Source: Nitrosopumilus sp.
GTDB taxonomy: Archaea > Thermoproteota > Nitrososphaeria > Nitrososphaerales > Nitrosopumilaceae
Reading direction: 5' to 3'
DNA length: 64,000 nt
Assembly (NCBI GenBank): GCA_965214775.1
Contig: OZ243974.1
Coordinates: forward strand, 1,696,001-1,760,000
Both the position numbers and the translations under genes were made by a program. The notes under the pieces are model-generated. The model was given only the letters and a program-made list of their open reading frames with translations. It was not told the origin of the DNA and ran no database searches. Positions within the stretch are counted from its first letter, which is position 1. Every line of letters begins with the position of its first letter. This document shows, one piece after another, positions 7,818-22,006 of this stretch.

Positions 7818-8522
7818 TCAATCGTTACTATAGTTTATCATAATGCCGTTGTCTCGCAGCCATGTTACGGCCCTTTGATAGTCGTGCATATGCGAGGAGA
7901 CCAGTCTCCAGAAACGATACGAATGGTCTTTGATCTTGAAATGACACAGCTCGTGCAATATTACATATTCGACTACAAACTTCGGAGCCTTGACAAGGTT
8001 GTAATTCAGGTTGATTTCATTACCAGTCGAGCTCCCCCATCTGTCCTTTAACTGCTTGACGTTTATTGTAGGAATGTTAACGCCTACTGTACTAGATAGT
8101 TTTTTCGTCAACCGTGCAAAAAGAACCCTTGCGCGCCTGTTAAGATATGCATTGTACATTTTTTGAATATGAGCGTTCGTGTGTCTTTTCTGAGGTATGT
8201 AAAACTCTAGTGTACTTCCTGCAATGCGTACATGCTCTGTACTGTTTGGTATGATTTTGATTGTATAGTGCTTGTCAAGTACGGGTAGGGTTGATTTTGT
8301 TGAAAATGTGGTATTTTTCTTGCCTGCATAATATAGCTGTTTTTTGTATATCCATGACGCCTTGTCCCTTACCATGCTTTTTACATCATGCATTGATTTG
8401 TTCTTGGGTGTTCGTACGGTAACACCTTGAACGGTAACCGTAATCTGTGAAGTCTTTACCCTGTTGCTTTGTATCAGATCATACAGGATTGATGTGTTTC
8501 CGTGCTTTATTTTTTGCATCAT
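7818..8522 (-). CDS. M48/YgjP (DUF45) metallopeptidase associated with type I R-M
   Basis: RWGS...YVILHELCH...H..FW motif; overlaps the hsdR stop. Confidence 0.92.
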   Translation of the reverse strand: MMQKIKHGNTSILYDLIQSNRVKTSQITVTVQGVTVRTPKNKSMHDVKSMVRDKASWIYKKQLYYAGKKNTTFSTKSTLPVLDKHYTIKIIPNSTEHVRIAGSTLEFYIPQKRHTNAHIQKMYNAYLNRRARVLFARLTKKLSSTVGVNIPTINVKQLKDRWGSSTGNEINLNYNLVKAPKFVVEYVILHELCHFKIKDHSYRFWRLVSSHMHDYQRAVTWLRDNGIMINYSND

Positions 8523-11500
8523 AATGCATCGTGATTAACCAGCGTCAGAATCTTATCAATCAGGGCAAATATGTCCTCATCTGCCATGCTAGATGCCTCA
8601 AGTGTGTCGTATATCGCTCCTTGCATCTTTCTTTGAATGCTTGGCTTGTTGTGGTACTCTACCATTGTAGTGAAGGGTTGTAGTTTAGAGTACAGTGATT
8701 TTGCAAGTTTTCTCGACTGCTCTTTTTGGTGCACTAGTTTGTCAAGGTGATTATAAATGGCAAATTCTAGGTTGTTTTCGAATCCGAGATCCTTTAACAC
8801 CTTTTGGTGTGATAATGCCTCCTCGTAGACTTGCTTGTATTCGTTTTCGGCAAAGTAATCTGCGTTGTCCTTGCGTCTTTGTTTTTCTTCAGATATTATC
8901 CTCAAAAGACGCTGCTGCAGGCTTTCAAAGTATTCGGGGTTAATGTGCATATTTTCATGTATTACCTGTTGTGCCTTGTTTTTAATCAGGGCGGTTCTTG
9001 CCCTAGATGATTCAAACCTTGAAACATATGCCAAAAAGTTCTCAAAGGTAATCTCCTTGGGCTTTACAATCTCAGGTACCCCAGACGATCTGATTGCGTC
9101 ATCTATTAGCTTCTGAATCTTTGAGGCGTATTTAACGGTAGAAGTTATTTCACCGTAGGCGTTTCGTAATACCTGTCTGATTTTTACAAGATCCTTGAAA
9201 TCATCAATGTATGGCTTAGCCTCTTTTTTGTAGATTTGTGTGTTAAAAACCTTGGAGAACTTTTTAAAGTCCTCTATAAAGGCGTCTCTTTTATCTGCTG
9301 GCTCAAATGCTACAACGATTGCACCGTAATCCTTTTTGTCCATACCCTTAAGATGATTCATCACATCATGATGATGCGACTGGAGCGACTCCAACTGATG
9401 AGCATCAGGCTCTAGGGCCCCCCTGATCTGGCAAGGATTAAATGACTGTAGCGCATTTTGGAGGTTTTTTGTTACGCCATAGTAGTCTACAATCAGTCCT
9501 CTGATTTTTGATTCGTCGTAGGGCCTGTTTACCCTTGCAATGGCCTGCAGTAACGCATGATCCTTGAGTGGTTTGTCAAGATACATTACGCTTACAATCG
9601 GTGCGTCAAAGCCCACCAGCAGCATGTCTACTACGATTAATATCTTGGTTGGATCTTTTGGATCTTTGAAGGCATTCTCGGCCAGCCTTTGTTCCTTGTC
9701 TGTAAGGTAGTACTTGTCCCAGCTTGTACCATCCTTGCCTGTCTCACCTTGTTTTTGATCCATTATTATTTTTGACTGCGGTGCGTGCAATCTATCCAGC
9801 TCTTTTTTGTATAGTACAGCTGCCTCCCTTGATGAGGCAACAAGCATTGCCTTGTATCCGGATTCCAAATAGTTTTCCTTAAAGTGGTCGATGATATTGC
9901 TAGCAATTTCTTTTATTCGTGCAGGAGACGTGGCAATTGCGATTTTGTTCGCATACTCTCGCTTTAGCTTATCCTTTAGCTCTGGCGTCATGCCCTGTTC
10001 GGATCCGACGAATCTTTCAAATAGCTCATCAATGTTATTGGCACCTTCGATAAACAGGTCAGGTAGCATTCCTACATAATCTATTGGGAGGGTGGCCCCA
10101 TCTGACTTTGACTCCTCAAAACCATACTGGTCGATTAAATCCCCAAAAACCTGAAACGTTGACTTGTCTTCCCTGTCAATCGGTGTTCCGGTAAAACCAA
10201 AGAATATACCATTGGGCATTGCAGCACTCATGGAGTTTGCATCTATGCCGTACTGTGAACGGTGTGCCTCATCTACAAGAACTATGATCTTTTCATCCGT
10301 CTTGCTTTTTACATCCTCGAACTTTTGTATCGTAGTCACCATGGTCTTGCCCCTTGGTGATGCGATAAATTCGTCAAGATCGGAAGAGATTTGCGCCTTT
10401 ACCGGTAACGGATATCCGGACTGGAGAAAGGTGCTGTAAATTTGCTGGGTTAGCTGTAATCTATCCGTTACTATCAGTATGGGTAGATTACCGTGCTGAA
10501 TTGCCTGTTTTGCCACCCACAGCATTGTAAATGACTTGCCAGATCCCTGGGTATGCCAGACGACACCACCGTGTCTGTCCTGTGCGGTTTGTATTTTTTT
10601 GGCACACTCTTGCACTGCCCTATACTGCTGATGTTTTGCTGTAATTTTTATTTTTTTACTGCCTGTGTCTTGGTATATTGTATAGTTTTTTAGCAAGTCC
10701 AACAGGTTGGACTTGTCAAGCATTCCCGCAATCAGTATCTCCTGCTCCCTACATGCTCCGAATTTCTCCTCTACCTGTTCCCTAGTCAAAGGATGTGCAC
10801 TAGACCACCTACTGTTTTGAAAACTGTTTACATCAGAAGTTATCGTGCCGTGTCTTGCCTTTATTCCGCATGTTGCAATAAGTATGTGGTTATAGTACAT
10901 TAGCCTGTCAAAGCCCTTACCCGATGATCGGTATTTTTTGAAATTCTCTTTTTCTACCGCATCTTCTAGCCATCTTGGTTTGGTAGGGGACTTGCACTCG
11001 ATTATCACTAGAGGAATGCCGTTGACAAAGACTACGATATCAGGATAAATACGCTGCTTGAAACCCCACAGTTCAAACTGGTTTGTAACCAAAAAATCAT
11101 TGTTCTGCATGTTTTCAAAATCAAACAGTCTTATGGTTTTTCGCACTGTGCCGGTTGCATCGTACTGTTCCACTGTTATGGGCTCAAGGCCCCCAGACTG
11201 TGACAGGCCAACAAGCTTTGCCCTGATCTTTTCATTTGCATCTACAGTATCCCGCGCAAACGGAAACTGATCCTCCTTTATCTGACTCAATGCATCAGAT
11301 ATGCCATCCTGATCAATGTGTGGGTTGAGTCGTCGTATTGCCTTTTCTAGCCTATCATACAGTAGCACCTCGTCTAGCTTGGATCTCTCCTTGTTGATAT
11401 CTAGCTTGGATTTGTATTGGTATCCCATTGTAGTCAGCTGCTCTAGTGCTGGCAGCTCAGAGTGCTCTATTTCATCACCTGAGCCTACCACAAAATCCAT
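8519..11500 (-). CDS. hsdR: Type I restriction enzyme R subunit
   Basis: PDIVVFVNGIPLVIIECK nuclease motif; HTQGSGKS, DEAHRSQ, FTGTP, VDMLLVGFD and QAIARVNR helicase motifs. Confidence 0.97.
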   Translation of the reverse strand: MDFVVGSGDEIEHSELPALEQLTTMGYQYKSKLDINKERSKLDEVLLYDRLEKAIRRLNPHIDQDGISDALSQIKEDQFPFARDTVDANEKIRAKLVGLSQSGGLEPITVEQYDATGTVRKTIRLFDFENMQNNDFLVTNQFELWGFKQRIYPDIVVFVNGIPLVIIECKSPTKPRWLEDAVEKENFKKYRSSGKGFDRLMYYNHILIATCGIKARHGTITSDVNSFQNSRWSSAHPLTREQVEEKFGACREQEILIAGMLDKSNLLDLLKNYTIYQDTGSKKIKITAKHQQYRAVQECAKKIQTAQDRHGGVVWHTQGSGKSFTMLWVAKQAIQHGNLPILIVTDRLQLTQQIYSTFLQSGYPLPVKAQISSDLDEFIASPRGKTMVTTIQKFEDVKSKTDEKIIVLVDEAHRSQYGIDANSMSAAMPNGIFFGFTGTPIDREDKSTFQVFGDLIDQYGFEESKSDGATLPIDYVGMLPDLFIEGANNIDELFERFVGSEQGMTPELKDKLKREYANKIAIATSPARIKEIASNIIDHFKENYLESGYKAMLVASSREAAVLYKKELDRLHAPQSKIIMDQKQGETGKDGTSWDKYYLTDKEQRLAENAFKDPKDPTKILIVVDMLLVGFDAPIVSVMYLDKPLKDHALLQAIARVNRPYDESKIRGLIVDYYGVTKNLQNALQSFNPCQIRGALEPDAHQLESLQSHHHDVMNHLKGMDKKDYGAIVVAFEPADKRDAFIEDFKKFSKVFNTQIYKKEAKPYIDDFKDLVKIRQVLRNAYGEITSTVKYASKIQKLIDDAIRSSGVPEIVKPKEITFENFLAYVSRFESSRARTALIKNKAQQVIHENMHINPEYFESLQQRLLRIISEEKQRRKDNADYFAENEYKQVYEEALSHQKVLKDLGFENNLEFAIYNHLDKLVHQKEQSRKLAKSLYSKLQPFTTMVEYHNKPSIQRKMQGAIYDTLEASSMADEDIFALIDKILTLVNHDAL

Positions 11501-11549
11501 GGGTTTACTTGTCGTACATCCTTGTAAGTTTTAGGATGGTATTAAGATC

Positions 11550-12602
11550 TGTCTTATACAGAAATTAGGTCCGCCTAAGATAAGGCGTACGATCGCTGAC
11601 TATTTCAGGCTGTACCGATCAAGCAAAGACATGACAAGAAAGATGTCGGACAAGAAGATCAGGTATGTCATCAGGGGCCGCAATGCCGGAAAGAGCGCCA
11701 CGTCGCTGGCCCGTGACATGAAGGTGACGCCACGGCACGTGAGGAGGATTTACGCTAGGTACCGCCAGACAGGAAAGATGCACGTGCAGCAAAAGGCGGG
11801 AAGAAAGGCCGCACCGCAGCCCGCGGCAGGCCAGGTGCAGGCAGTCTTGGACATGCACTCTGTAGAGCACGTAGGCGTGATGCGCACTGCCATGCGCCTG
11901 CAGGATGCAGGTCACGTTATAAGCTACAACAGCGTATATCGGATAATGAAGGAGCAGGGACTCGTTACTCCATCAGATGCCAAGTCGGGCCAAAAAAAGT
12001 GGCTGCGTTATGAGCGCAAGTACTCCAACGCAATGTGGCACGTGGACTGGCACGATATGAAGGATCCACGCCTGAGAGGGCTCAATCTAGTCACGTTTTT
12101 GGACGATTCATCCCGGTGTGTCACGCCGGCACGGACGTTTGCCGAGGCCACATCAGAAAACGTGGTGATAACACTCAGGGATGCCATAGACAGATTTGGC
12201 ACGCCGGCTACCATACTGTCTGACAACGGCAGGTGTTTCAACGGCGGCCGCAGCAAGAAGAACATGCCACGCGGAACATGGACGCCGACTACCTTTGAGG
12301 CCGAGCTGCTGAACCGGGGTATCGGACTGATAAACTCAAGACCGTATCATCCAGAGACCAACGGCAAGCTGGAATGATTCCACGGCAGCATAGAGGCCGA
12401 AATCCGTCACTATGAGAGCCTGGCAGCATACATCAAGTACTATAACGAACGCAGGCTGCACTTTGGGCTGGACATAGCCCACCGCCAGACGCCCATCATG
12501 GCGTTCTCGGACAAAACGGCCACAGAAGCGATCAGGAAATCCGACCCAAAATGGATGGAGAGGGACATCAATGAATAGCGGACATTATTTCCATATAACA
12601 CA
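11550..12602 (+). mobile_element. IS481-family element with inactivated transposase
   Basis: TGT...ACA ends with ~25-bp imperfect TIR; duplicated flank TGGTATTAAGAT. Confidence 0.9.
11631..12578 (+). pseudogene. IS481 transposase with premature TGA at 12375-12377
   Basis: WHVDW, LDDSSR, SDNG, HPETNGKLE*; the frame continues FHGSIEAEI to 12578. Confidence 0.9.
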
Positions 12603-12654
12603 CTGGTATTAAGATTCAATAACAGGAGTTTGATATACTGATTAGATACACATA

Positions 12655-13212
12655 ATGACATATTTTGTAAAACCCAAGATTTGTAATGTAGTGTGTACTG
12701 CCAGTCTTGAGCAAAGGATCAATATGGCTAGGCTTGCTGGACTTGCGTGCGGAATTTATGATGAGGCGATATACGGCGGAAGATGCGGATATGTTAAGAT
12801 GCCTGAGATGGACGGACGTGTGACCATATTTCCAAGTGGAAAGATGATCTCAGTTGGAGGCAGAACCATAAGCAAGGCCATCGAGCAGCTCAACCACGCA
12901 AAATTCTATCTGGTACAGGAAAAAATGATACACGATGTAAAGATTGTTCCCGTGATCCGAAACATCGTAGCCACGGTTGAGCTTGATCATAAAATACCCG
13001 TTGACGTATTGGCCTCAAAGATATCTGGAGCCATATATGATCCCGAAACGTTTCCAGGCATGATTTTAAAAGGGATCGACAGCTGTCGTTTTCTTGTATT
13101 TGCCTCTGGAAAGATTGTGATTGCAGGTGCCAAATCCTCAGACGAGCTAAACAGTGCATCCTTTGAGGTTCTTCAGAGGCTAGATGATACGGCCGCAAGG
13201 ATACTAACATGA
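12655..13212 (+). CDS. tbp: Divergent TATA-box-binding protein paralogue
   Basis: Two TBP repeats: NVVCTASL...IFPSGKMISVG and NIVATVEL...YDPETFPGMI...LVFASGKIVIAGAKS. Confidence 0.92.
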   Translation: MTYFVKPKICNVVCTASLEQRINMARLAGLACGIYDEAIYGGRCGYVKMPEMDGRVTIFPSGKMISVGGRTISKAIEQLNHAKFYLVQEKMIHDVKIVPVIRNIVATVELDHKIPVDVLASKISGAIYDPETFPGMILKGIDSCRFLVFASGKIVIAGAKSSDELNSASFEVLQRLDDTAARILT

Positions 13213-14423
13213 CTCCAAAACCAAAAAAAGGCTACAAATTGGCAAAGTCGCTTTTTGGGAGATATGAGGAGATTCCAGAAGAATGGGAAATTGTTTCTAT
13301 GGAACAAATCTGTAAAAAATTTACTAGTGGAGGTACTCCCTCAACAAATGTTTTAGAATATTGGGATGGAGACATTCCATGGACAAGAAGCTCCATTTTA
13401 ACGAATCATTATTTGGAATATGGCGAACGATGTATTACAAAAAAAGGACTAGATGAAAGCTCTTCTGTTCTAATCCCGCAAGACAATTTACTTGTATCAT
13501 CCAGAGTATCGCTTGGAAACTTGTCGATAAATCGTATTGCTGTTGCAATTAGTCAGGACATAACGGCAATTATTGTAGATAAATCACACATCTCTTCTGA
13601 GTTTCTTTACTGGTTCTTAAAACAGAATATTATGCTCTTGACATCATACTCTCAAGGAACAACTATTCAGGGTTTCACACGAAAAGAATTATCAAAATTT
13701 CGAGTCGTTCTTCCTCCACTCCCAGAACAGGCAAAGATTGCGTCAATCCTTTCAGGAGTTGACGCACTGATTGAAAAGACGCAGGAGGCAATCGAGAAGA
13801 CCGAGCAGGTAAAGAGAGGATTGACGCAAAGATTACTGACTAATGGAATAGCAGGTACAAAACTCAAGAAAACATTTTTGGGCAAAATTGCTAAATTCTC
13901 AAGTGGTGAGTTTTTACCTACAAAAAACTATAATTTTGGCAAAATTCCCGTGTATGGAGGAAATGGTGTTGTTGGTTATCATGATAAGGAATTAATCAAA
14001 CACGATACGATAATTTTTGGTAGAGTTGGTGCATATTGTGGTTCAGTACATATTTCAAGAGATAAGTCATGGATTACTGATAACGCTATATTTATCAAGA
14101 ATCTTTCAAATCAAGTCCAGCTAGAATATCTTTATAGATTTTTATCACGATTAAACATAGGCATTTTAGCTGAAGTATCTGCACAACCAAAGATTACACA
14201 AGATATTCTCAACCATGTTAAAGTCCAATTTCCTGAAGATTTAGATGAACAAAAACAAATTGCATCAATCCTGTCGGGAGTTGACGCACCAGACCGTGCA
14301 TGCCTCATAATCGCCACAATCTTACGCATGAGACTGGGAATACTCTTAATACTGTTTGCAGCGGTGTTAAACCATGAGTTCCACAATACAGAAAAGGACC
14401 TACACAATCGTCATAACTTCTGA
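13209..14423 (+). CDS. hsdS: Type I R-M specificity subunit, second (inverted) copy lacking the conserved C-terminal helix
   Basis: IPEEW, SGGTPST, PPLPEQAKIASIL and a second TRD; homology stops after IASILSGVDA at 14288. Confidence 0.9.
   Translation: MTPKPKKGYKLAKSLFGRYEEIPEEWEIVSMEQICKKFTSGGTPSTNVLEYWDGDIPWTRSSILTNHYLEYGERCITKKGLDESSSVLIPQDNLLVSSRVSLGNLSINRIAVAISQDITAIIVDKSHISSEFLYWFLKQNIMLLTSYSQGTTIQGFTRKELSKFRVVLPPLPEQAKIASILSGVDALIEKTQEAIEKTEQVKRGLTQRLLTNGIAGTKLKKTFLGKIAKFSSGEFLPTKNYNFGKIPVYGGNGVVGYHDKELIKHDTIIFGRVGAYCGSVHISRDKSWITDNAIFIKNLSNQVQLEYLYRFLSRLNIGILAEVSAQPKITQDILNHVKVQFPEDLDEQKQIASILSGVDAPDRACLIIATILRMRLGILLILFAAVLNHEFHNTEKDLHNRHNF
13724..13805. repeat. hsdS inverted repeat 1, left (partner 19188-19269)
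   Basis: 43 bp perfect match (13724-13766 vs 19227-19269), ~82 bp with 6 mismatches. Confidence 0.92.
14258..14288. repeat. hsdS inverted repeat 2, left (partner 18591-18621)
   Basis: AATTGCATCAATCCTGTCGGGAGTTGAYGCA, 30/31 identical. Confidence 0.9.
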
Positions 14424-14595
14424 TGAAATAGATGGGGGTTTTGTCGGGGTCTGCGATGAGCTGAACGCCTTTTCGCAAGGTGAGACGTACGGAGAGGTAA
14501 TGGAGAATATGAAGGAGGCAGTAGAGCTTGCGGCAGAAGAAAGCGGCAACACTGATGATTTTAACATGCTGATCGTTCAGAAGCGTAATGACTAA
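14374..14595 (+). CDS. hicB: HicB-family antitoxin
   Basis: YTIVI...GGFV...FSQGETYGEVMENMKEAVEL. Confidence 0.9.
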   Translation: MSSTIQKRTYTIVITSDEIDGGFVGVCDELNAFSQGETYGEVMENMKEAVELAAEESGNTDDFNMLIVQKRND

Positions 14596-14902
14596 GATTC
14601 CGAGAATTTCCGGCAATGCAATGATAAGATACCTGATCAGGAAAGAATTCACAACAACAAGCAGAAAAGGCAGTCACGTTACATTAAGACGTGATCATGT
14701 CCCGGTAACGGTTCCTGCTGGAAACGGCAAGCTAAAGGTTGGGTTGCTTTTAGGCGTGCTAGACAAGGCGGGAATTGACAGGAAGGAGTTTGTAGACGAT
14801 CACATCGTACGAGGTCACCTACCCCTGCCAATCAGGCACGAGTTGGCATCTATGACTATGATTTTCACGCCTATACTGACGATCATTGAAAATTTCGCCT
14901 GA
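14588..14902 (+). CDS. hicA: HicA-family toxin, C-terminus altered by insertion
   Basis: RKGSHV...VTVP...LKVGLL..VLDKAGI; the native end SGIAK* lies at 16003-16020 beyond the insertion. Confidence 0.85.
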   Translation: MTKIPRISGNAMIRYLIRKEFTTTSRKGSHVTLRRDHVPVTVPAGNGKLKVGLLLGVLDKAGIDRKEFVDDHIVRGHLPLPIRHELASMTMIFTPILTIIENFA

Positions 14903-15994
14903 TTACACGCGGCGCTCAAGATATTTGTAGATGTCAACCTTGATGGAACACGTCCTAAAGTATTCCGAGACATCCCTTTTGAGGTGATCTGCCGAATCGT
15001 AAAAGGCAGATGTGACCAGTATGTACTTGGCATCCTTCCAGATTGGCTCTATGGCGCTCAGCTCCGGCCTGGCTACCGGCAGGTACAGCAGGATAACGTC
15101 GGGATTTTTCTCCAGGTACATGCGGACCCTTCCGGTCCTATGCTGTGCTGCGTTGTCCATCACAATCAGAACCTTTCCCCACTTTTTGCGCGCCTGCTTG
15201 AGATAACGCACAAAGTTTATGCTGTTGAACTTGTCGTATGTACGCATCAGCCTGGTTCCGTCGTCTGCAACCGTTCCGTATACCACGACGCGCTCCCTTC
15301 TGCCGGATCGTTGCACCTCGATTCTGTCCCCCACTGGCGACCAGAACTTTTTGCCGTCCCTTCCCGTACTGACGAATATCGACTCGTCCTGTACGGTTAT
15401 CCTGAATCCGCGCCTTTTTGCAAGCCTAATCGTGTCTTTTGCCTCCCTTTGCCATCGTCTTACCTCCTTTGCGTCGGCAGCATCTGCCAGCTTGGTAGTT
15501 GACGTCTTTAGCGAGAATCCCATCGTGCGCAGGATTCTTCTGATGCTTCCAACGCTGTATGTTACATGCAGTTTGCGGCGCACCCAGTTGCGCATCTTCT
15601 TTGGGGTGAGCTTTTCCATCCTGCGCAGCCTCATGGCGATCTTTTTTATCCTGTTGATTGGAACCTTTGGCTTTTTGCCCCTGTTGGGGGAGTCACGGAG
15701 ACCGTCAACGCCGTCAAGCTCAAACCTCTCAACCCACATCTGTACGGTACGCTGTGTCACGTCGGCAATCTCTGCGGTCTGTGCAGTGGTGTTGCCAAGC
15801 AGTACGGAGCGCACCGCCAGGATTCTGGTATAAACCCTGTTATCCTTTTCTACATGCATGGCGTCCGTGAGGATTTTCGTCTTGTTCATGTCAGAAGGGC
15901 CATGGCGGAGATCTATAAACCTTCACAAGACGTGTAATCAGGCGAAATTTTCAATGATCGTCAGTATAGCCAGCAGGGGGACGTGACCACATAC
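14807..15994. mobile_element. MITE family C split by IS630
   Basis: 67 + 26 = 93 bp halves; 8-bp TSD ATCACATC. Confidence 0.88.
14874..15966 (-). mobile_element. IS630-family element (transposase 14903-15889)
   Basis: ~32-bp TIR TACTGACGATCATTGAAAA(T)TTTCGCCTGATTA, TA target; QDES, MDNA and PELSAIE DDE motifs. Confidence 0.93.
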
Positions 15995-16124
15995 ATCACA
16001 TCAGTGGAATTGCCAAATAATTGAATGTAAAGCTGTCCCAGGCATCACGGTCAAAATATAGAGAATAAAATAGCTATTTTATGAAACAGCTACACAAAAA
16101 CATGAATTTGAATATACAATCACG

Positions 16125-17039
16125 ATGTCAAACCAAAGAAGCATGACGCTGTTTGAGGAATCAATCAGATCAAAATATACAAAAAGGAACTACCATTCTC
16201 ACCTCAACCACTTCATGAAATTTATGAAAGCAGGCTCTACTGATGATGTGTTGATGCTATCACCCTCCGAGCTACAACGCGGAGTAGAGGATTACCTGAT
16301 GGCGTTAAAATCCACATCCAATCCAAACTCAGTCCCGTCTATGTTTCGAGGAATAAGGCATTTTTGCATCATGAATGAGATCGGCCTCAACTGGAACAAA
16401 ATATACAAGATGTTTCCCCCAAAACAGAAAACCCAAAGCATGAGATCCTACACCGCAAGTGAAATCCGCCGGATGCTGTCTGTTGAAAAAAATGCGAGAA
16501 ACAAGGCACTGATTCACTTTCTTGCATCAACGGGTGCAAGAATAGGGGTTTTTGATCATCCCATGCTGATCAAACACATGCAAACGATGCCCTGCCGCTG
16601 CAGCGCGGTGCTGCTTTATGCCGGGGATGTGGAGGAATACTGGTCATTTCTTACGCCACAGGCAACGAAAATACTAAAGGCGTACCACGATTACCGCAGG
16701 CAAAAAGGTGAGGTTTTCGGTGATGACGCCCCGATGTTTGGAACTGACAAGGCAGTCCAAGGGCAGTTGGGATGGAGTGGTGCCAGATCCGTAATCTACA
16801 GGGCAATCTCAAAGAGCGGCATAGCCAGACTCAAGCAGGGAGGACGCTATGATGTTCAGGCAGATCACGGTTTTAGAAAGCGGTTCAATACCATACTAAA
16901 GCTGGACAATTCGATAAACTACAACATTGCAGAAAAACTGATGGGTCACAAAAATGGCCTTGATGGAACATATCTTACGCCAACACTGGAGGAGATGTTC
17001 TCAGAATTTAGGAAAGTCATGCGCAAGATACAGGTTTGA
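16125..17039 (+). CDS. Tyrosine recombinase (candidate hsdS invertase)
   Basis: STGARIG, HGFRKRF, LMGH and Y catalytic motifs; lies between the inverted hsdS genes. Confidence 0.9.
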   Translation: MSNQRSMTLFEESIRSKYTKRNYHSHLNHFMKFMKAGSTDDVLMLSPSELQRGVEDYLMALKSTSNPNSVPSMFRGIRHFCIMNEIGLNWNKIYKMFPPKQKTQSMRSYTASEIRRMLSVEKNARNKALIHFLASTGARIGVFDHPMLIKHMQTMPCRCSAVLLYAGDVEEYWSFLTPQATKILKAYHDYRRQKGEVFGDDAPMFGTDKAVQGQLGWSGARSVIYRAISKSGIARLKQGGRYDVQADHGFRKRFNTILKLDNSINYNIAEKLMGHKNGLDGTYLTPTLEEMFSEFRKVMRKIQV

Positions 17040-17178
17040 GTTGCAGGAGGAAGCTTGGATCCTAACCTGATGCGGGTTGTGGGTCACATAGATAACATGT
17101 TTACGATTATCCGTGGGACATAGAAAACCATGTGTGCATCACACACTTGAGATTTTGTTGACATCCTTAAACTTGATC

Positions 17179-18177
17179 TCAATAACGTTTTCTGTTTATT
17201 TTAAACTCGTATGTTTTCTTAATTAGCGGTAAAGCATTTTGTATGTCTTTATCAGTTTTGATATCCGACTGGAAATTTCCTACACCGTGATGCCCTTTGT
17301 CAGAAACATCTATGATGAACTTTGAGAGAGGTAAAATATTCTTGTCTGAAACAGAGTATGTCAGGGCAATTTTCGACTGCATTGCCTCCATTGTACAAAT
17401 GCAGGAACCGTGTTCTCGTGAATAGAAACCTGCATAGATCTTTTTCTGTGTGAATTCTAATTCCGGAATCATGTCTAGGATTCTATTCTTCAACTCATTC
17501 CATAATTTTTTTGTCATATCCGAAGGACGTGCATTATGATATTTGCCTGCAAGATAGTCGTCCTCGACATATGTCGTCAGGGCCAACATCTTGTTCCTCT
17601 TTTTATGATTTTCAGAGATTGTTTCTTTTTGGCCGCCTGCAAAAGCCATGGTAATTATGTCGTTTTCATATCTGTTGATCCGGTATAGTACAATTGGCAG
17701 TCCTTCAAAACCACCTGCCTTTTTCTGAAACTTTGTAAATTCCGGAGAAATGAATACCACCCGAGTTTCATCCCAATTGAAATAGTCTAAATCATAATGC
17801 CTTTTCGTTATCTTGTTGTATAACAAGACAAAACTTTCTTTTTTGTCTTTTAATAACTGATAATAGCTGAATCCCTGATCTGTTAGACTGTTGGCCTTTG
17901 CAATGTTTTTGTATTCAATAATTACAAACGATTTTTTTTCTACATCAAAAGCAATAGTATCGGGTCTTAGATCTCCTATTTGGTGTTCGGTTTTAAGCAA
18001 TTCAACATTTGGGAAAATGATTGAAAGGTTATTTTCTATCATTTTCTGAAGTGTTTTTTCATAATCAAAAGATCTCTTGGAGTTTGACCTCTCTCTGATC
18101 TCCTTTAATTTTCTGTTTTCTAATTGGAAAATGCGCAAACCTATGCTGTACATTAGCTGAGATGCTAATAAATGCAT
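17179..18177 (-). CDS. PD-(D/E)xK (NucS/DUF91-like) nuclease fused to a DUF5655-like domain
   Basis: EKTLQ...RPDTIAFD...VIIEYK...DQGFSY; C-terminal DVSDKGHHGVG. Confidence 0.8.
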   Translation of the reverse strand: MHLLASQLMYSIGLRIFQLENRKLKEIRERSNSKRSFDYEKTLQKMIENNLSIIFPNVELLKTEHQIGDLRPDTIAFDVEKKSFVIIEYKNIAKANSLTDQGFSYYQLLKDKKESFVLLYNKITKRHYDLDYFNWDETRVVFISPEFTKFQKKAGGFEGLPIVLYRINRYENDIITMAFAGGQKETISENHKKRNKMLALTTYVEDDYLAGKYHNARPSDMTKKLWNELKNRILDMIPELEFTQKKIYAGFYSREHGSCICTMEAMQSKIALTYSVSDKNILPLSKFIIDVSDKGHHGVGNFQSDIKTDKDIQNALPLIKKTYEFKINRKRY

Positions 18178-18208
18178 AATGTCGCAGCGTCCTCCCAGTA
18201 CCGCTTCA

Positions 18209-18351
18209 CAGAGATCTGATTTGAAATTAGCAAACTCGGATTATTTGTGGACGAGTTTGTATAAAGTAGCTCAAAACATCAACAAAACGCAAGATATCTG
18301 TGAAATTACTTGAAAAATTCGCACGGTTTCTAATTTCGGATCACCTCTCAG
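18209..18351. mobile_element. MITE family B copy
   Basis: Reverse-orientation homologue of 24004-24146. Confidence 0.8.
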
Positions 18352-18491
18352 CGGACTGGTGGAAGGTTTTGTTCTAGAAGCATCCACGGACTGGTTCTGC
18401 TTTGTACTGCAAGCCGTTTAGTGTGCATCTTTAGGACTATTGTCACTATACTAAGTATATGCTGTATGACCAGATACGACAAGTGATGGTC

Positions 18492-19766
18492 TCAGATCTT
18501 TACTCGGATCTTGCCTGTAAGAAGATTCTGCATTAAGCCTTTTTTCAATATCTCAAGTTTTTCTTTGTACTCCTGATTCTTCTGAATATATGCATCAACT
18601 CCCGACAGGATTGATGCAATTCTTTGTTGTTCTGGAAGGGATGCCGGTACAGTAACAACCACCTTTGAGATCCCCTTTTTACTGATCTCTAAAAACGTCG
18701 TGCCATATGATAGTCGCAACAAGTTATTTTGATTGTGCCTGAGCAAATAAAAAATCAACAACTTGTCAAAGCCATCATTGCAAATTATGCTTTGAAATCC
18801 TTGATTGGTTGATATTGGCTTTGCTGCTATTGCACATTCGCCAATCGTAGCTCGTGAAGTAATCAGAATTGCCCCCTTGGGTAACAATTTGGCCGAACTA
18901 TTGTCCAATCCATGTTTGGTGATTTTCCGCTCGGTGTTTTTTATCTCGTTGGTTTGTAACTTAGTGATGTCTGTTGGAATCGCCCACAATATGTCTCCGT
19001 TCCAGTATTCTGGATTTTTGGAATCCGGAGTGCCACCGCCGATTATATCTCCTACATCGCTTAGTCTTTTGGCATCCCACTCTTCTGGAATCTTGATATC
19101 TTTGCTGAACATCCAATGGACCTTCTTGAACTTCGTATGGCCGATTCCCCTAGTCAGCAGCCTCTGCATAAGGCCCTTCTTGAGCCTCTCCGTCTTCTCG
19201 ATTGCCTCCTGCGTCGACTCGATCAATGCGTCAACTCCTGAAAGGATTGACGCAATCTTTGCCTGTTCTTTTATATTATCAGTAAATGGCAGTTTTGTTT
19301 TTTCTATATCCTCCCTGTTTATCGCATCATATGTAGTTCCCTGAGCGTAAACAGAAAAATTTTTCTTGTTTTTACTGATCAAATAAAAACAGTAAAGCAA
19401 GTTGTTTTTTCTCGTGTTAAACGATGCTATGCCCCTTCCTATACAACATCTCGTTTTTGTGAGATTTGTTTCCCCTACTGGAGCTCTTACAGAAAACAAA
19501 ATGGAGTTGCTTTCTGCGATTTTTTTGGAATCTGTACACCATACCGTAGGATTTGGATATGCTGCTCCAAAATCAGTTACTCCCTGATAAAACGGCAAAC
19601 CTTTCTCTTCTTCATTGTAACTTTCGGATGGTGGAGACTGGCCCATTGTTACTTTTAGTATTTCTGAAGTTCGTGTAATTGTCCACTCTTCTGGAATTTT
19701 AATCTCCCTGTCAAACATCCAGTGGATCTTCTTGTAGCCTTTCTTGGGATTAGGCGGCCGATTCAA
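18492..19766 (-). CDS. hsdS: Type I R-M specificity subunit, complete, coupled to hsdM
   Basis: Two TRDs (MGQSP..., GGGTPDS...), two IASILSGVDA helices and terminal KKGLMQNLLTGKIRV. Confidence 0.95.
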   Translation of the reverse strand: MNRPPNPKKGYKKIHWMFDREIKIPEEWTITRTSEILKVTMGQSPPSESYNEEEKGLPFYQGVTDFGAAYPNPTVWCTDSKKIAESNSILFSVRAPVGETNLTKTRCCIGRGIASFNTRKNNLLYCFYLISKNKKNFSVYAQGTTYDAINREDIEKTKLPFTDNIKEQAKIASILSGVDALIESTQEAIEKTERLKKGLMQRLLTRGIGHTKFKKVHWMFSKDIKIPEEWDAKRLSDVGDIIGGGTPDSKNPEYWNGDILWAIPTDITKLQTNEIKNTERKITKHGLDNSSAKLLPKGAILITSRATIGECAIAAKPISTNQGFQSIICNDGFDKLLIFYLLRHNQNNLLRLSYGTTFLEISKKGISKVVVTVPASLPEQQRIASILSGVDAYIQKNQEYKEKLEILKKGLMQNLLTGKIRVKI

Positions 19767-21372
19767 AGCTTTATCCCAAGTCCCGTCAAATCTGCTCGTG
19801 TCTGCTTTTCCAGTTTTCCTATCTCTGCACTTGTGGTTTTTAACTCATTATATGCAGTTTGTATGTCGATTTCCTCTTCGGGCTCGGAAATGTCTACGTA
19901 TCGGGGCACATTAAGATTAAACTTGTTTTCTTGCAGTTCTTTCAAATCTGCTACATGGCAATACTTGTCAATATCCTTAAAACTCTCAAATGCGGACACT
20001 ATCTTTGAAATATCTGTTACTCTTAGCTTGTTTCTGTTTTTGCCCTCTTCAAAGTCCTTTGCGGCATAGATGAACAGAACTTTGTCTTTACGCTTTGCAG
20101 GCTTTGACTTGTTTAGAATCATTATACAGGCAGGAATGCTTGTACCCCAGAACAGCTTGGGTGGCAGTGCAATTATGGCCTCAATTACATCACCTTGCAG
20201 GTTATTCTCAGCACATCCGACAATCATTTTTTCTCGGATTTTACCCTCCTTGCTTCCTCTGAACAGAACCCCTTGGGAACACACTATGGCTGCCTGACCT
20301 TTTGGGTTCAACGACGTCAACATGTGCAAGATAAAAGCATAATCTGCCTTGTTCTTTGCAGGAGATATGCCGTACTCAAACCTGTCGTACGGATCTTCTG
20401 ATGCCGTAGAGTTGTCCCAGTCCATGGAAAAGGGAAAATTAGCTAATAGACTTTATGCGTAATCGATCTGAATGAGATGAATTTGTTCGTAATAATCCTA
20501 GTTTTGGATCGATTACGCATAAAGTCTAATACCCTGTCGTATTTTTTAAGTGAGCCGCCTTCTATCAGTTTTGGTTCCGATAACACATTTCCATACTGTA
20601 TGTTAAAGTTCTCCATCTGGTGTAAAACCATGTTCATCTTACACATTCCTAGGTTGCCATAGTTTGATTCCTGTCCATCCAGTACAAGATCATCAACGTT
20701 GCCGCCATGATCCTGCACGTATTTTCTAGAAAGAATCAGCATTCCGCCGGAACCGCAGGTAGGATCAGAGATCTTCATCTTTTGTGTTGGTTTTGTGATA
20801 TGTACCAACAAGCTTACGACTTCCCTTGGGGTAAAGAACTCACCACCCTTCTTTTTTGTCTCATCTGCAAACGTCTCAAGCAGATACTCGTACGCATCGC
20901 CAAAAATGTCCTCTTTTTCTAGATTTTCATTGGATAATGCCAATCCGTTAAAGTGTGCAATAAGAGCACGAAGCTTGTCATCAGGATATTTCTTTTTGTC
21001 GTTGTACTTTGTATTGGTTAGCACTCCCTCCAGTTTTCGTATATTTTTTTCCAAATCCCTGCATACATCATCCATTTTTTCGCCCAGATTGGAAGATGCA
21101 GAAGACAAGATATCCCAACGTGCAGACTCTGGAACAAAAAACTTATGTCGGAATTCTTGTAGTGCCTTTTTCTCATTCAGGCCACTTTCTATCAAATTCG
21201 CCACATTTTCCTCAAAGGTGTCATTTAGGCGCTTTAGAAACAACACTGTCATGACTGGCTGCCTGTATTCTTGCGCATCAAGGGATCCACGCAGAATGTC
21301 GGCTGCATCCCATAAGTGCCGCTTCAGTGACTCGAGTGTTAGTTTATTTTGGCCCACAAAGCCATTTGGCAA
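19763..21372 (-). pseudogene. hsdM: Type I methyltransferase interrupted by a MITE
   Basis: LWDAADILRG, GEFFTP, DPTCGSGG. Removing 83 bp at ~20449-20531 restores YDRVLANFPFSMDW in frame. Confidence 0.93.
20449..20526. mobile_element. MITE family A inserted in hsdM
   Basis: 20-bp perfect TIR GACTTTATGCGTAATCGATC; duplicated TAATA (or AAT) target. Confidence 0.92.
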
Positions 21373-21504
21373 TATAGGATTCTTTATAGATTTTCATTTG
21401 TTTGCAGTAGCAGGTTAGGCCTACTTAGCTTTCAGCCATGTCCAAACCCCTTGCAGCAAAATTCACGCTTACATGTTGCAGCGATCTAGCCTATTGCCTT
21501 TCGA

Positions 21505-21692
21505 CATGCATGGTATCCATGAGGATTTTCGTCTTGCCCATGTCAGGAGGGCCATGGTGGAGATCCATAAAACTTCACAAGGCGTGTAGTCACAAGGCGA
21601 AATTTTCAATGATCACTAGTATGGGTAGCAATCAGGCACACGCTTGTCTGTAGTTATGATTTTCATGTCCGGCCGGCAAGGGACGTGACTCC
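21505..21692. mobile_element. IS630 5' end fragment abutting a degenerate family C MITE
   Basis: Similar to 15853-15966, followed by AATCAGGCAC...ATGATTTTCA...GGGACGTGAC. Confidence 0.7.
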
Positions 21693-21721
21693 AACTCTGG
21701 CTAGGGGCTATCTTATTACCA

Positions 21722-22006
21722 CTATTCCTTTGACACCTTGGATCTGTATTTCTTTATTCGGCCATCGAGTCGAGAAGCATTCCTTAAGAGAAACCGCTCG
21801 CGTTCTTGCCGTGGAAGAAACGGGAGAAGCTCCTCAAGCGAGTCCATATAATGTTCCGTTCGTTCTTGGGCGTATTTGAGTGATCGAAGCACGTTGTCCA
21901 GCTTGGCCCTTGCAGGGTCGGCCCGTGGTCCGATGTATATGGACTCCTTTCCTGCCTGAAAATACAGGTATTCTATACCCTTTGAGATCTTAACATTAAG
22001 CGTCAT
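21722..22006 (-). CDS. Small integrase-associated protein (putative regulator/RDF)
   Basis: K..KG.EYLY..AG....Y.G motif; homologue at 35653-35943; divergent from the integrase. Confidence 0.75.
   Translation of the reverse strand: MTLNVKISKGIEYLYFQAGKESIYIGPRADPARAKLDNVLRSLKYAQERTEHYMDSLEELLPFLPRQERERFLLRNASRLDGRIKKYRSKVSKE

Follow-up and report, generated by a model that had tools for sequence, protein, structure and literature searches.

A 64,000-nucleotide stretch of a Nitrosopumilus sp. genome (contig OZ243974.1 of assembly GCA_965214775.1; the whole stretch is called the window here, and coordinates are positions within it unless stated otherwise) contains a type I restriction-modification (R-M) locus that we consider likely to be a shufflon-type inverting locus, in which segments of two opposed specificity (hsdS) genes would be exchanged at short inverted repeats. 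The host genome is a single contig of 2.83 Mb in which archaeal amoA is present, and the host is therefore an ammonia-oxidizing archaeon; the locus belongs to a previously undescribed archaeal family that is conserved in ammonia-oxidizing archaea. This reading draws on the anatomy of the locus, its conservation in related genomes, the covariation of its sites, and contig ends in public sequencing runs that fit recombinants of one repeat pair. In the window genome itself, this family is represented by a degenerate locus.

The two hsdS genes are convergent and carry four different target recognition domains (TRDs), in agreement with a preliminary description made from the sequence alone. On the plus strand, hsdS-A (13209-14423; 404 amino acids [aa]; two Methylase_S stretches) encodes TRD1a, a central helix, TRD2a, and a C-terminal conserved region that extends to 14288; on the minus strand, hsdS-B (18492-19766; 424 aa) is complete, linked to hsdM, and encodes TRD1b, a central helix, TRD2b, and a C-terminal helix. 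The two proteins are 35% identical overall, with the identity concentrated in the conserved regions, which is why we regard the four TRDs as different. In hsdS-A, homology to HsdS proteins ends directly after the residues SGVDA at 14288, while hsdS-B carries on into a normal C-terminal helix; what follows in hsdS-A is a read-through into the region upstream of hicB, here termed the tail, which replaces the helix. The two genes have one complete C-terminal helix between them, as had been noted before, and with hsdM and hsdR nearby the arrangement is that of a type I locus with opposed hsdS genes.

Both hsdS genes contain the arms of two nested inverted repeats, IR1 and IR2. IR1 lies in the central helices (left arm 13724-13766 on the plus strand and right arm 19227-19269 on the minus strand), where the arms are perfectly complementary over 43 nt and similarity reaches 147 nt at 80%. 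IR2 lies at the C-terminal conserved regions (14258-14288, plus, and 18591-18621, minus); its arms match at 30 of 31 positions, with a 27-nt perfect run (14258-14284 and 18595-18621) and a single mismatch at 14285/18594. Each arm holds a 30-nt core, which in IR1 occupies 13737-13766 (ATTGCGTCAATCC-TTTCAG-GAGTTGACGCA) and 19227-19256 (spacer TTTCAG) and in IR2 occupies 14259-14288 and 18591-18620 (spacer TGTCGG in both). The core can be written as ATTGCRTCAATCC followed by 6 nt and GAGTTGAYGCA. Its left arm, TGCGTCAATCC, and the reverse complement of its right arm agree at 9 of 11 positions, and the 6-nt spacer separates the two arms, so that by its sequence the core looks like a dif-type 11-6-11 site with imperfectly inverted arms. 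At up to 6 mismatches, the 2.83-Mb genome holds only four copies of the core, all within this locus. Because the central spacer is TTTCAG and the C-terminal spacer is TGTCGG, the two pairs would behave as separate switches.

The identity of the repeats goes beyond what protein conservation would give. Fourteen codons (EQAKIASILSGVDA) are identical between the two central regions, whereas the next 26 identical residues share a codon in only 13 cases; the chance of a run of 14 same codons is ∼6e-5 (0.5^14), and this difference indicates that the identity of the central regions is held at the DNA level. All four cores share one codon phase (ATT GCx TCA ATC CTx TCx GGA GTT GAy GCA), which means that exchange between them would be in frame. 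In a set of 41 related sites taken from 22 stretches, four-fold degenerate positions within the arms (9, 21, 24, and 30) are near-fixed, at 36 to 41 of the 41 sites, and position 18, also four-fold and midway along the spacer, is free to vary (A16, G13, T10, C2). These sites were chosen at ≤6 mismatches, a threshold that favors overall conservation but cannot account for the positional pattern.

A scan for the core found it in 15 of 151 genomes of the genus and in 13 of 401 genomes of the order; all of the latter belong to the family of the window genome, in which 12 of 139 genomes besides its own were positive, and the other families searched gave none. The comparison with related genomes that the preliminary description had called for revealed that the layout recurs in several genera. 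Genome G469, which represents another genus, and G157 carry hsdS(+), hicB, hicA, the recombinase gene, hsdS(-), hsdM(-), and hsdR(+) in this order, in the same tail-to-tail layout as the window, one hsdS having the tail and the other the C-terminal helix. The G469 locus appears unbroken, and so does hsdM in G469, G157, and G164, where a similarity search gave adjacent matches to both halves of the gene. Other arrangements are a mirrored, tail-to-tail form (G278), a head-to-head form whose hsdS genes enclose hsdR and hsdM (G164, G155, and G170), and one in which they enclose hsdM alone (G009b and G270). The C-terminal helix sits on the hsdM-linked hsdS in G000 (the window genome), G157, G164, and G469. 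G009b has the opposite state: there the helix belongs to an inverted half hsdS, and the hsdM-linked hsdS terminates in core, tail, and the remnant of a hicB gene.

Partner sites of tyrosine recombinases must share their overlap region, and in lox and FRT variants spacer identity sets the partner rule; this predicts that spacers should be identical within a pair, and spacers that differ between pairs would also stop the two switches from cross-reacting. Over 10 loci, central pairs had identical spacers in 7 of 7 cases (G000, G157, G164, G155, G170, G469, and G278) and C-terminal pairs in 9 of 10 (G000, G157, G164, G155, G170, G154, G009b, G469, and G270). The central spacer differs from the C-terminal one in all seven loci having both pairs, and spacers also vary among loci. 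The arms, by comparison, tolerate mismatches within a pair, such as that at 14285/18594 in the window.

A check of reads for alternative orientations had also been suggested, and its outcome is divided. The locus is present in five public runs, four of which (X3, X4, X6, and X7) were compared as Logan contigs with uncovered parts excluded; X4 and X6 come from one study and X7 from another. Run depth is even along the locus, as DNA should give. When the reference genome was walked as a k=31 de Bruijn graph, the observed contig ends 12574-13753, 16925-18297, 18322-19256, and 19240-20472 were recovered, and this agreement away from IR2 validates the approach. For IR2 itself, the reference taken alone would leave contigs 13737-14368 and 18322-19256 unbroken. 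Three runs gave other ends: 13737-14284 (548 nt) and 18595-19256 (662 nt) in X6, 13737-14284 (548 nt) and 18592-19256 (665 nt) in X4, and a 551-nt record, of which 548 nt align, together with 18595-19256 (662 nt) in X7. Adding the six 31-mers of the IR2-inverted junctions to the graph produces lengths of exactly 548 and 662; adding the junction from TRD2a to the helix alone produces 548 and 665; and a majority of the inverted form combined with the reference junction on the other arm produces 551, including three non-reference letters, and 662. The contig ends fit, indirectly, the presence in three of the four runs and in both of these studies of k-mers that join the flank of one arm to the continuation of the other, and the switch probably still recombines in this strain.

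The runs contain another contig at this locus, at ∼10 to 13% of the depth in X3, X4, and X6 and absent from X7, in which 14247-14327 is joined to 19269-19611 on opposite strands, with changes at 19448-19451. It comprises a TRD1b-like domain directly followed by a core of C-terminal type and the tail, a layout that is fixed in G164. This contig does not fit a simple core-by-core crossover product and may come from another allele or strain or from a secondary rearrangement.

The proposed invertase is a 304-aa tyrosine recombinase encoded on the plus strand at 16125-17039. The catalytic set of tyrosine recombinases consists of R, H-x-x-R, H/W, and Y in the C-terminal domain, and among 10 orthologs R139, R251, H275, and Y283 are invariant and H248 is near-invariant (one Y). 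The protein scores 20.1 bits against Pfam Phage_integrase (cut-off, 27.1 bits) and 50.7 bits (1.8e-13) against the NCBIfam XerA equivalog (cut-off, 220 bits); being below both curated cut-offs, it represents a divergent clade and not XerA itself. A PDB sequence search returned no match at E 0.01. The predicted structure is of moderate quality (predicted local distance difference test score [pLDDT], 71.9; residues 254-284 poor), and its best Foldseek matches were XerA (5hxy; E 1.2e-8), 4a8e, Cre, IntI, and XerH, so that the model points to a two-domain Xer/Cre-like fold. XerA, Cre, IntI, and XerH act on simple arm-spacer-arm sites.

The recombinase gene is the last member of a conserved block consisting of the core, the hicB upstream region, hicB, hicA, and the recombinase gene; on its left the block begins with the core, and past the stop codon of the recombinase gene homology is lost. 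In the window, the first gene of this cassette is a hicB-like antitoxin gene (14374-14595, plus; Pfam HicB_lk_antitox, 18.7 bits, below the cut-off of 27), followed by the hicA toxin gene (14588-14902, plus; Pfam HicA_toxin, 29.9 bits, above the cut-off of 27). Copies of the hicB-like gene that are 62 to 100% identical adjoin recombinase orthologs. Twelve recombinase copies at ≥57% identity were drawn from the first 61 genomes, and 9 of them have a core, an hsdS gene, or a fragment of hsdS no more than ∼1.5 kb away; the exceptions are the second copy of the window genome, which is cut by an insertion sequence (IS), that of G017, and that on a 4.4-kb G028 contig. Conversely, of 9 loci identified by their core, 8 contain the recombinase gene. 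The earlier proposal of a dedicated recombinase in the innermost segment stands as to position, the gene lying inside the IR2 pair, and is too simple as to dedication, given its membership of a hicBA cassette with a decayed second copy and a wider family in which hsdS linkage is rare (2 of 80 loci).

From these elements we propose a mechanism in which the cassette-encoded recombinase would act on the core sites and exchange strands either within the IR2 pair or within the IR1 pair, whose spacers match. Exchange at IR2 would flip 14285-18594, bringing the C-terminal helix to the hsdS-A linked to a TATA-binding protein (TBP) paralog and the tail to the hsdM-linked hsdS-B. Exchange at IR1 would flip 13767-19226 and generate TRD1a + TRD2b + helix along with TRD1b + TRD2a + tail. 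The resulting four states would offer four full-length TRD combinations, two of them expressed at the hsdM-linked site and the other two at the TBP-linked one. These inversion products follow from the coordinates; their expression, and any difference in specificity among the variants, we infer, as we do the flipping of IR1 and catalysis by the locus recombinase, from sequence.

The preliminary description had anticipated several methylation specificities from such inversions, which is impossible in this genome. The hsdM gene (19763-21372, minus) is a pseudogene, interrupted by a 78-nt miniature inverted-repeat transposable element (MITE) at 20449-20526 that is flanked by a 5-nt TATTA target duplication and positioned immediately ahead of the ANFPF motif; when 83 nt are deleted in silico, the gene becomes a single open frame of 508 aa. 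The genome was found to hold no further hsdM of this family. With hsdM broken by the MITE, the methylation read-out is dead here, and no HsdS variant can act in this strain.

Several observations weigh against an actively inverting locus. X3, the deepest run, shows only the reference pattern at IR2, and no read or contig across a recombinant junction was seen in the four runs, the evidence there being contig end coordinates. IR1 inversion creates no new 31-mer and is for that reason invisible in k=31 contigs, and when the HsdS-B protein was searched for near-identical halves, as IR1 recombinants would have, its only 100% match was itself, the best others being 54 to 73% identical. The hsdM of the window genome is not intact but split by the MITE, an IS630 element stands 155 nt upstream of the recombinase gene, the recombinase of G157 is split over two frames, and the spacers of the G278 C-terminal pair differ by one base. 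The alignment of 10 orthologs contains no clear beta-hairpin Lys at the place where Xer-type enzymes have one. The decayed second cassette copy at 517 kb, the rarity of hsdS near distant, integrase-like relatives, and the fact that a single-base conversion at the IR2 mismatch predicts the same contig ends weigh on this side as well.

On a rival explanation, which we consider unlikely, the hsdS genes are leftovers in a frozen relic and the hicBA-recombinase module is a selfish cassette that uses hsdS as an attachment site, with no current programmed inversion. The genome indeed holds a second hicB-hicA-recombinase cassette (517238-518750, outside the window), 91 to 96% identical and likewise ending at the recombinase stop codon, without hsdS; the copies in G036, G014, and G015 adjoin short hsdS fragments only; and the window locus is full of IS and MITE insertions, with hsdM dead. 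Thaumarchaeal elements are described as integrating into the 3′ ends of protein-coding genes (PMC6563490). The wider recombinase family is integrase-like as well: a metagenome scan with the recombinase alignment kept 80 loci with relatives at 40 to 64% identity, of which only 2 (L038 and L074) had hsdS nearby by tblastn, and at least 42 of the 80 contigs (L038-L117) end within 300 nt upstream of the gene, in or beside varied host genes, as expected at the edges of variable or mobile DNA. The more distant relatives, at 40 to 54% identity, are almost never near hsdS, and their contigs often end upstream of the gene; the hsdS-linked clade therefore seems to be a specialized offshoot of an integrase family. 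(tRNA genes occurred in only two of these loci, L072 and L106, neither adjoining the recombinase gene, and a corresponding scan with hsdS-A gave 131 pattern matches and no relatives.) An integrated element would nonetheless need direct repeats, and we rejected a mobile element with its att site in hsdS as the main explanation since the flanking cores are inverted, not direct, there is no further core in the genome, downstream or elsewhere, and no shared site follows the recombinase gene across nine loci. The selfish-cassette account also leaves aside the nested inverted pairs with covarying, pair-specific spacers in the seven loci with both pairs, the G469 locus that appears unbroken in similarity searches, and the contig ends that in three of four runs need IR2-recombinant k-mers.

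Inversion might instead proceed through general homologous recombination of the host on the short repeats, with the neighboring recombinase unnecessary. The similarity of the central repeats extends well past the core here and reaches 212 nt at 95% in G164, and recombination of spnIII is reported in PMC6620402 to be independent of all known pneumococcal site-specific recombinases. We regard this route as improbable: the perfect runs measure merely 43 and 27 nt, the recombinase is tightly linked to the sites in the core-found loci, and the combination of synonymous-site conservation in the arms, a free spacer, and within-pair spacer identity is the imprint that a site-specific enzyme, and not general recombination, would leave. 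The contig-end pattern taken by itself has a further reading, namely, single-base gene conversion or polymorphism at the IR2 mismatch without inversion, and a simulated C/T exchange at 14285 and 18594 does give the same two ends. That reading would require the two arms to carry mirrored polymorphisms in the runs of two separate studies and would itself amount to an exchange between the arms, and the conserved anatomy is independent of the contig-end pattern; we judge it very improbable.

A site-specific, shufflon-type locus can be set beside several known systems, and in bacteria inverting hsdS loci are phase-variable epigenetic switches. The SpnIII/ivr (cod) locus of Streptococcus pneumoniae, with its recombinase CreX/PsrA, resembles the locus described here in its opposed hsdS copies, in-frame inverted repeats within hsdS, a tyrosine recombinase within the invertible region, and one hsdS copy complete at a time, features described in part in PMC7672463 and PMC4948785. 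The differences are the archaeal host, a distinct, XerA-like, and very divergent recombinase clade without a PDB sequence match, two copies that are both full two-TRD genes with their own starts and share one C-terminal helix, a hicBA pair and TBP paralog in the locus, a broken hsdM, and short repeats (43 and 31 nt) holding dif-like cores. In the Mycoplasma pulmonis hsd system, two inverted hsdS genes recombine at short sites in conserved regions, and the head-to-head loci of G164, G155, and G170, with hsdR and hsdM between the hsdS genes, are like its layout. The likeness is one of layout; the M. pulmonis recombinase HvsR is encoded away from its target loci (PMC7672463), and the recombinase here is in the locus. 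The clade 2 (TvrR-type) epigenetic invertons of Huang et al. 2020, in which inversion yields a truncated HsdS and an ON/OFF switch (PMC7672463), compare by description, and not by recombinase sequence, with the IR2 switch, which would toggle which gene has the C-terminal helix; the second switch at IR1 would here also exchange TRDs.

The sites themselves recall Xer/dif and Cre/lox in having imperfectly inverted arms around a short spacer (11-6-11 here), in keeping with the best fold matches to XerA and Cre. They differ in lying within coding sequence and in being present in four copies as two nested inverted pairs, and the recombinase is far under the XerA equivalog cut-off given above. In the R64 shufflon, several inverted sites and one recombinase (Rci) reshuffle the 3′ ends of a gene. 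The gene family there is another one, and a 2021 review of archaeal tyrosine recombinases (PMC8371274) found no direct relation of these enzymes to Rci; its accessible text contains neither "restriction" nor "invertase."

The remark in the preliminary description that no characterized thaumarchaeal example was known agrees with Table 1 of PMC7672463, which lists four Euryarchaeota loci among 827 and no Thaumarchaeota, although its supplements may name more archaeal loci; in that study, 91.9% of the species carrying inverting hsdS loci are host-associated. A later systematic scan (PMC9881135) left out archaea according to the text available, the main text of PMC7394358 names no archaeal genus (its supplements may list archaeal loci), and the accessible text of PMC6563490 on thaumarchaeal integrated elements does not mention hsdS or inversion. 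The PhaVa preprint (PMC10028968) found 12 archaeal invertons in 42 datasets, none described as hsdS in the text available, with supplements that may list archaeal loci, and calls chromosomal invertons "minimally investigated in Archaea."

A conserved family of such loci in ammonia-oxidizing archaea, possessing a recombinase clade of its own and a readable site grammar (fixed arms, with spacers that match within pairs and are free among loci), would carry programmed, gene-altering inversion into another domain and lifestyle and would bear on virus defense in nitrifiers. Its recombinase, compact and archaeal, with short sites and orthogonal spacer variants that occur in nature, might be turned into a genetic tool. 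More tentatively, the hicBA-recombinase cassette and the core might together form a portable inversion module of one family of ammonia-oxidizing archaea, with two spacer-coded pairs that do not cross-react, a four-state hsdS shufflon that flips in culture, and a co-inherited TBP paralog driving the alternate hsdS; we think it somewhat doubtful that all of this holds. If true, such a two-switch module would be the first programmed, recombinase-driven, gene-altering inversion shown in Archaea, and one from free-living instead of host-associated microbes. Since the methylase gene is dead, this window taken singly is of less consequence.

The genome is heavy with IS and MITE elements. Five high-copy insertions lie in or beside the locus (11549-12606, 14804-15975, 18203-18358, 20442-20532, and 21499-21723), with up to 64, 36, 85, 51, and 26 further genome copies, respectively, by blastn. 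The first is an IS element between hsdR and the TBP gene (plus strand; rve-type transposase open reading frame [ORF] at 11631-12377; Pfam rve/HTH_21), and it splits off hsdR (8519-11500, minus; an uninterrupted ORF of 993 aa with Pfam HSDR_N, SWI2_SNF2, and T1R_D3-like matches) from the remainder of the locus. Between hicA and the recombinase gene lies an IS630-family insertion (14871-15969, minus) whose terminal inverted repeats are perfect over 39 nt. The 3′ end of the hicA ORF enters the end of this element, and homology to the 517-kb paralog stops at 14804; the region 14804-15975 has no counterpart in that paralog, which is without IS630, is cut on its left side by an rve-type IS, and has a TGA in its decayed recombinase gene. 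A contig joining 14798 to 15995, present in all four runs and matching at ≥90% with 10 and 35 differing letters in its two pieces, is read as this paralog. The short, MITE-like repeat at 18203-18358 (no strand assigned), between the DUF5655-like gene and hsdS-B, has up to 85 extra copies and coincides with a depth peak in the runs.

The divergent TBP paralog (12655-13212, plus; Pfam TBP, 1.4e-28) has a stop codon that overlaps the hsdS-A start (ATGA); the genome has four TBP genes, and the locus copy scores below the two best. Similar paralogs accompany related loci (L150, 5364-5882 and 1429-1929; L151, 5646-6167; L023, 12281-12769; L028, 463-985). In the window, G155, and G009, the paralog precedes hsdS directly and on the same strand; in G170 the two genes are convergent; and in G015 the paralog is frameshifted and lies next to a lone core. 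A bacterial-type promoter and terminator scan was unsuited to an archaeon, gave results at shuffle level, and was not used.

A third hsdS of the genome (346297-347463, outside the window) has another conserved-region type and lacks the core, which made it unusable as an in-genome baseline for repeat identity; no N6_Mtase match was found near it, and it appears to be an orphan specificity gene. In G036 (L037, 5000-6085), one ORF fuses Phage_integrase (residues 87-224) to a partial hsdS TRD (226-315) and is followed by a core and the cassette, a scrambled junction. In G014 and G009 (L024, 8850-13400; L023 and L034), recombinase orthologs that are 63 to 65% identical lie between or beside hsdS genes of a KIESIF-like type, which are without this core and have inverted repeats of 54 to 143 nt at 86 to 87% plus a palindromic stretch; these loci possibly carry a second site type.

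Downstream of hsdS-B, within the IR2 segment, lies a DUF5655-like gene (17179-18177, minus; Pfam DUF5655, 20.5 bits, below the cut-off). A comparison of its protein with the NucS_C protein of G036 gave E 0.031 and no clear relation. A DUF5655-like gene also adjoins hsdS in G469 (L154, 4041-4937; 33% identity), and the matching position is taken by the NucS_C protein in G036 and by an Mrr nuclease in G014.

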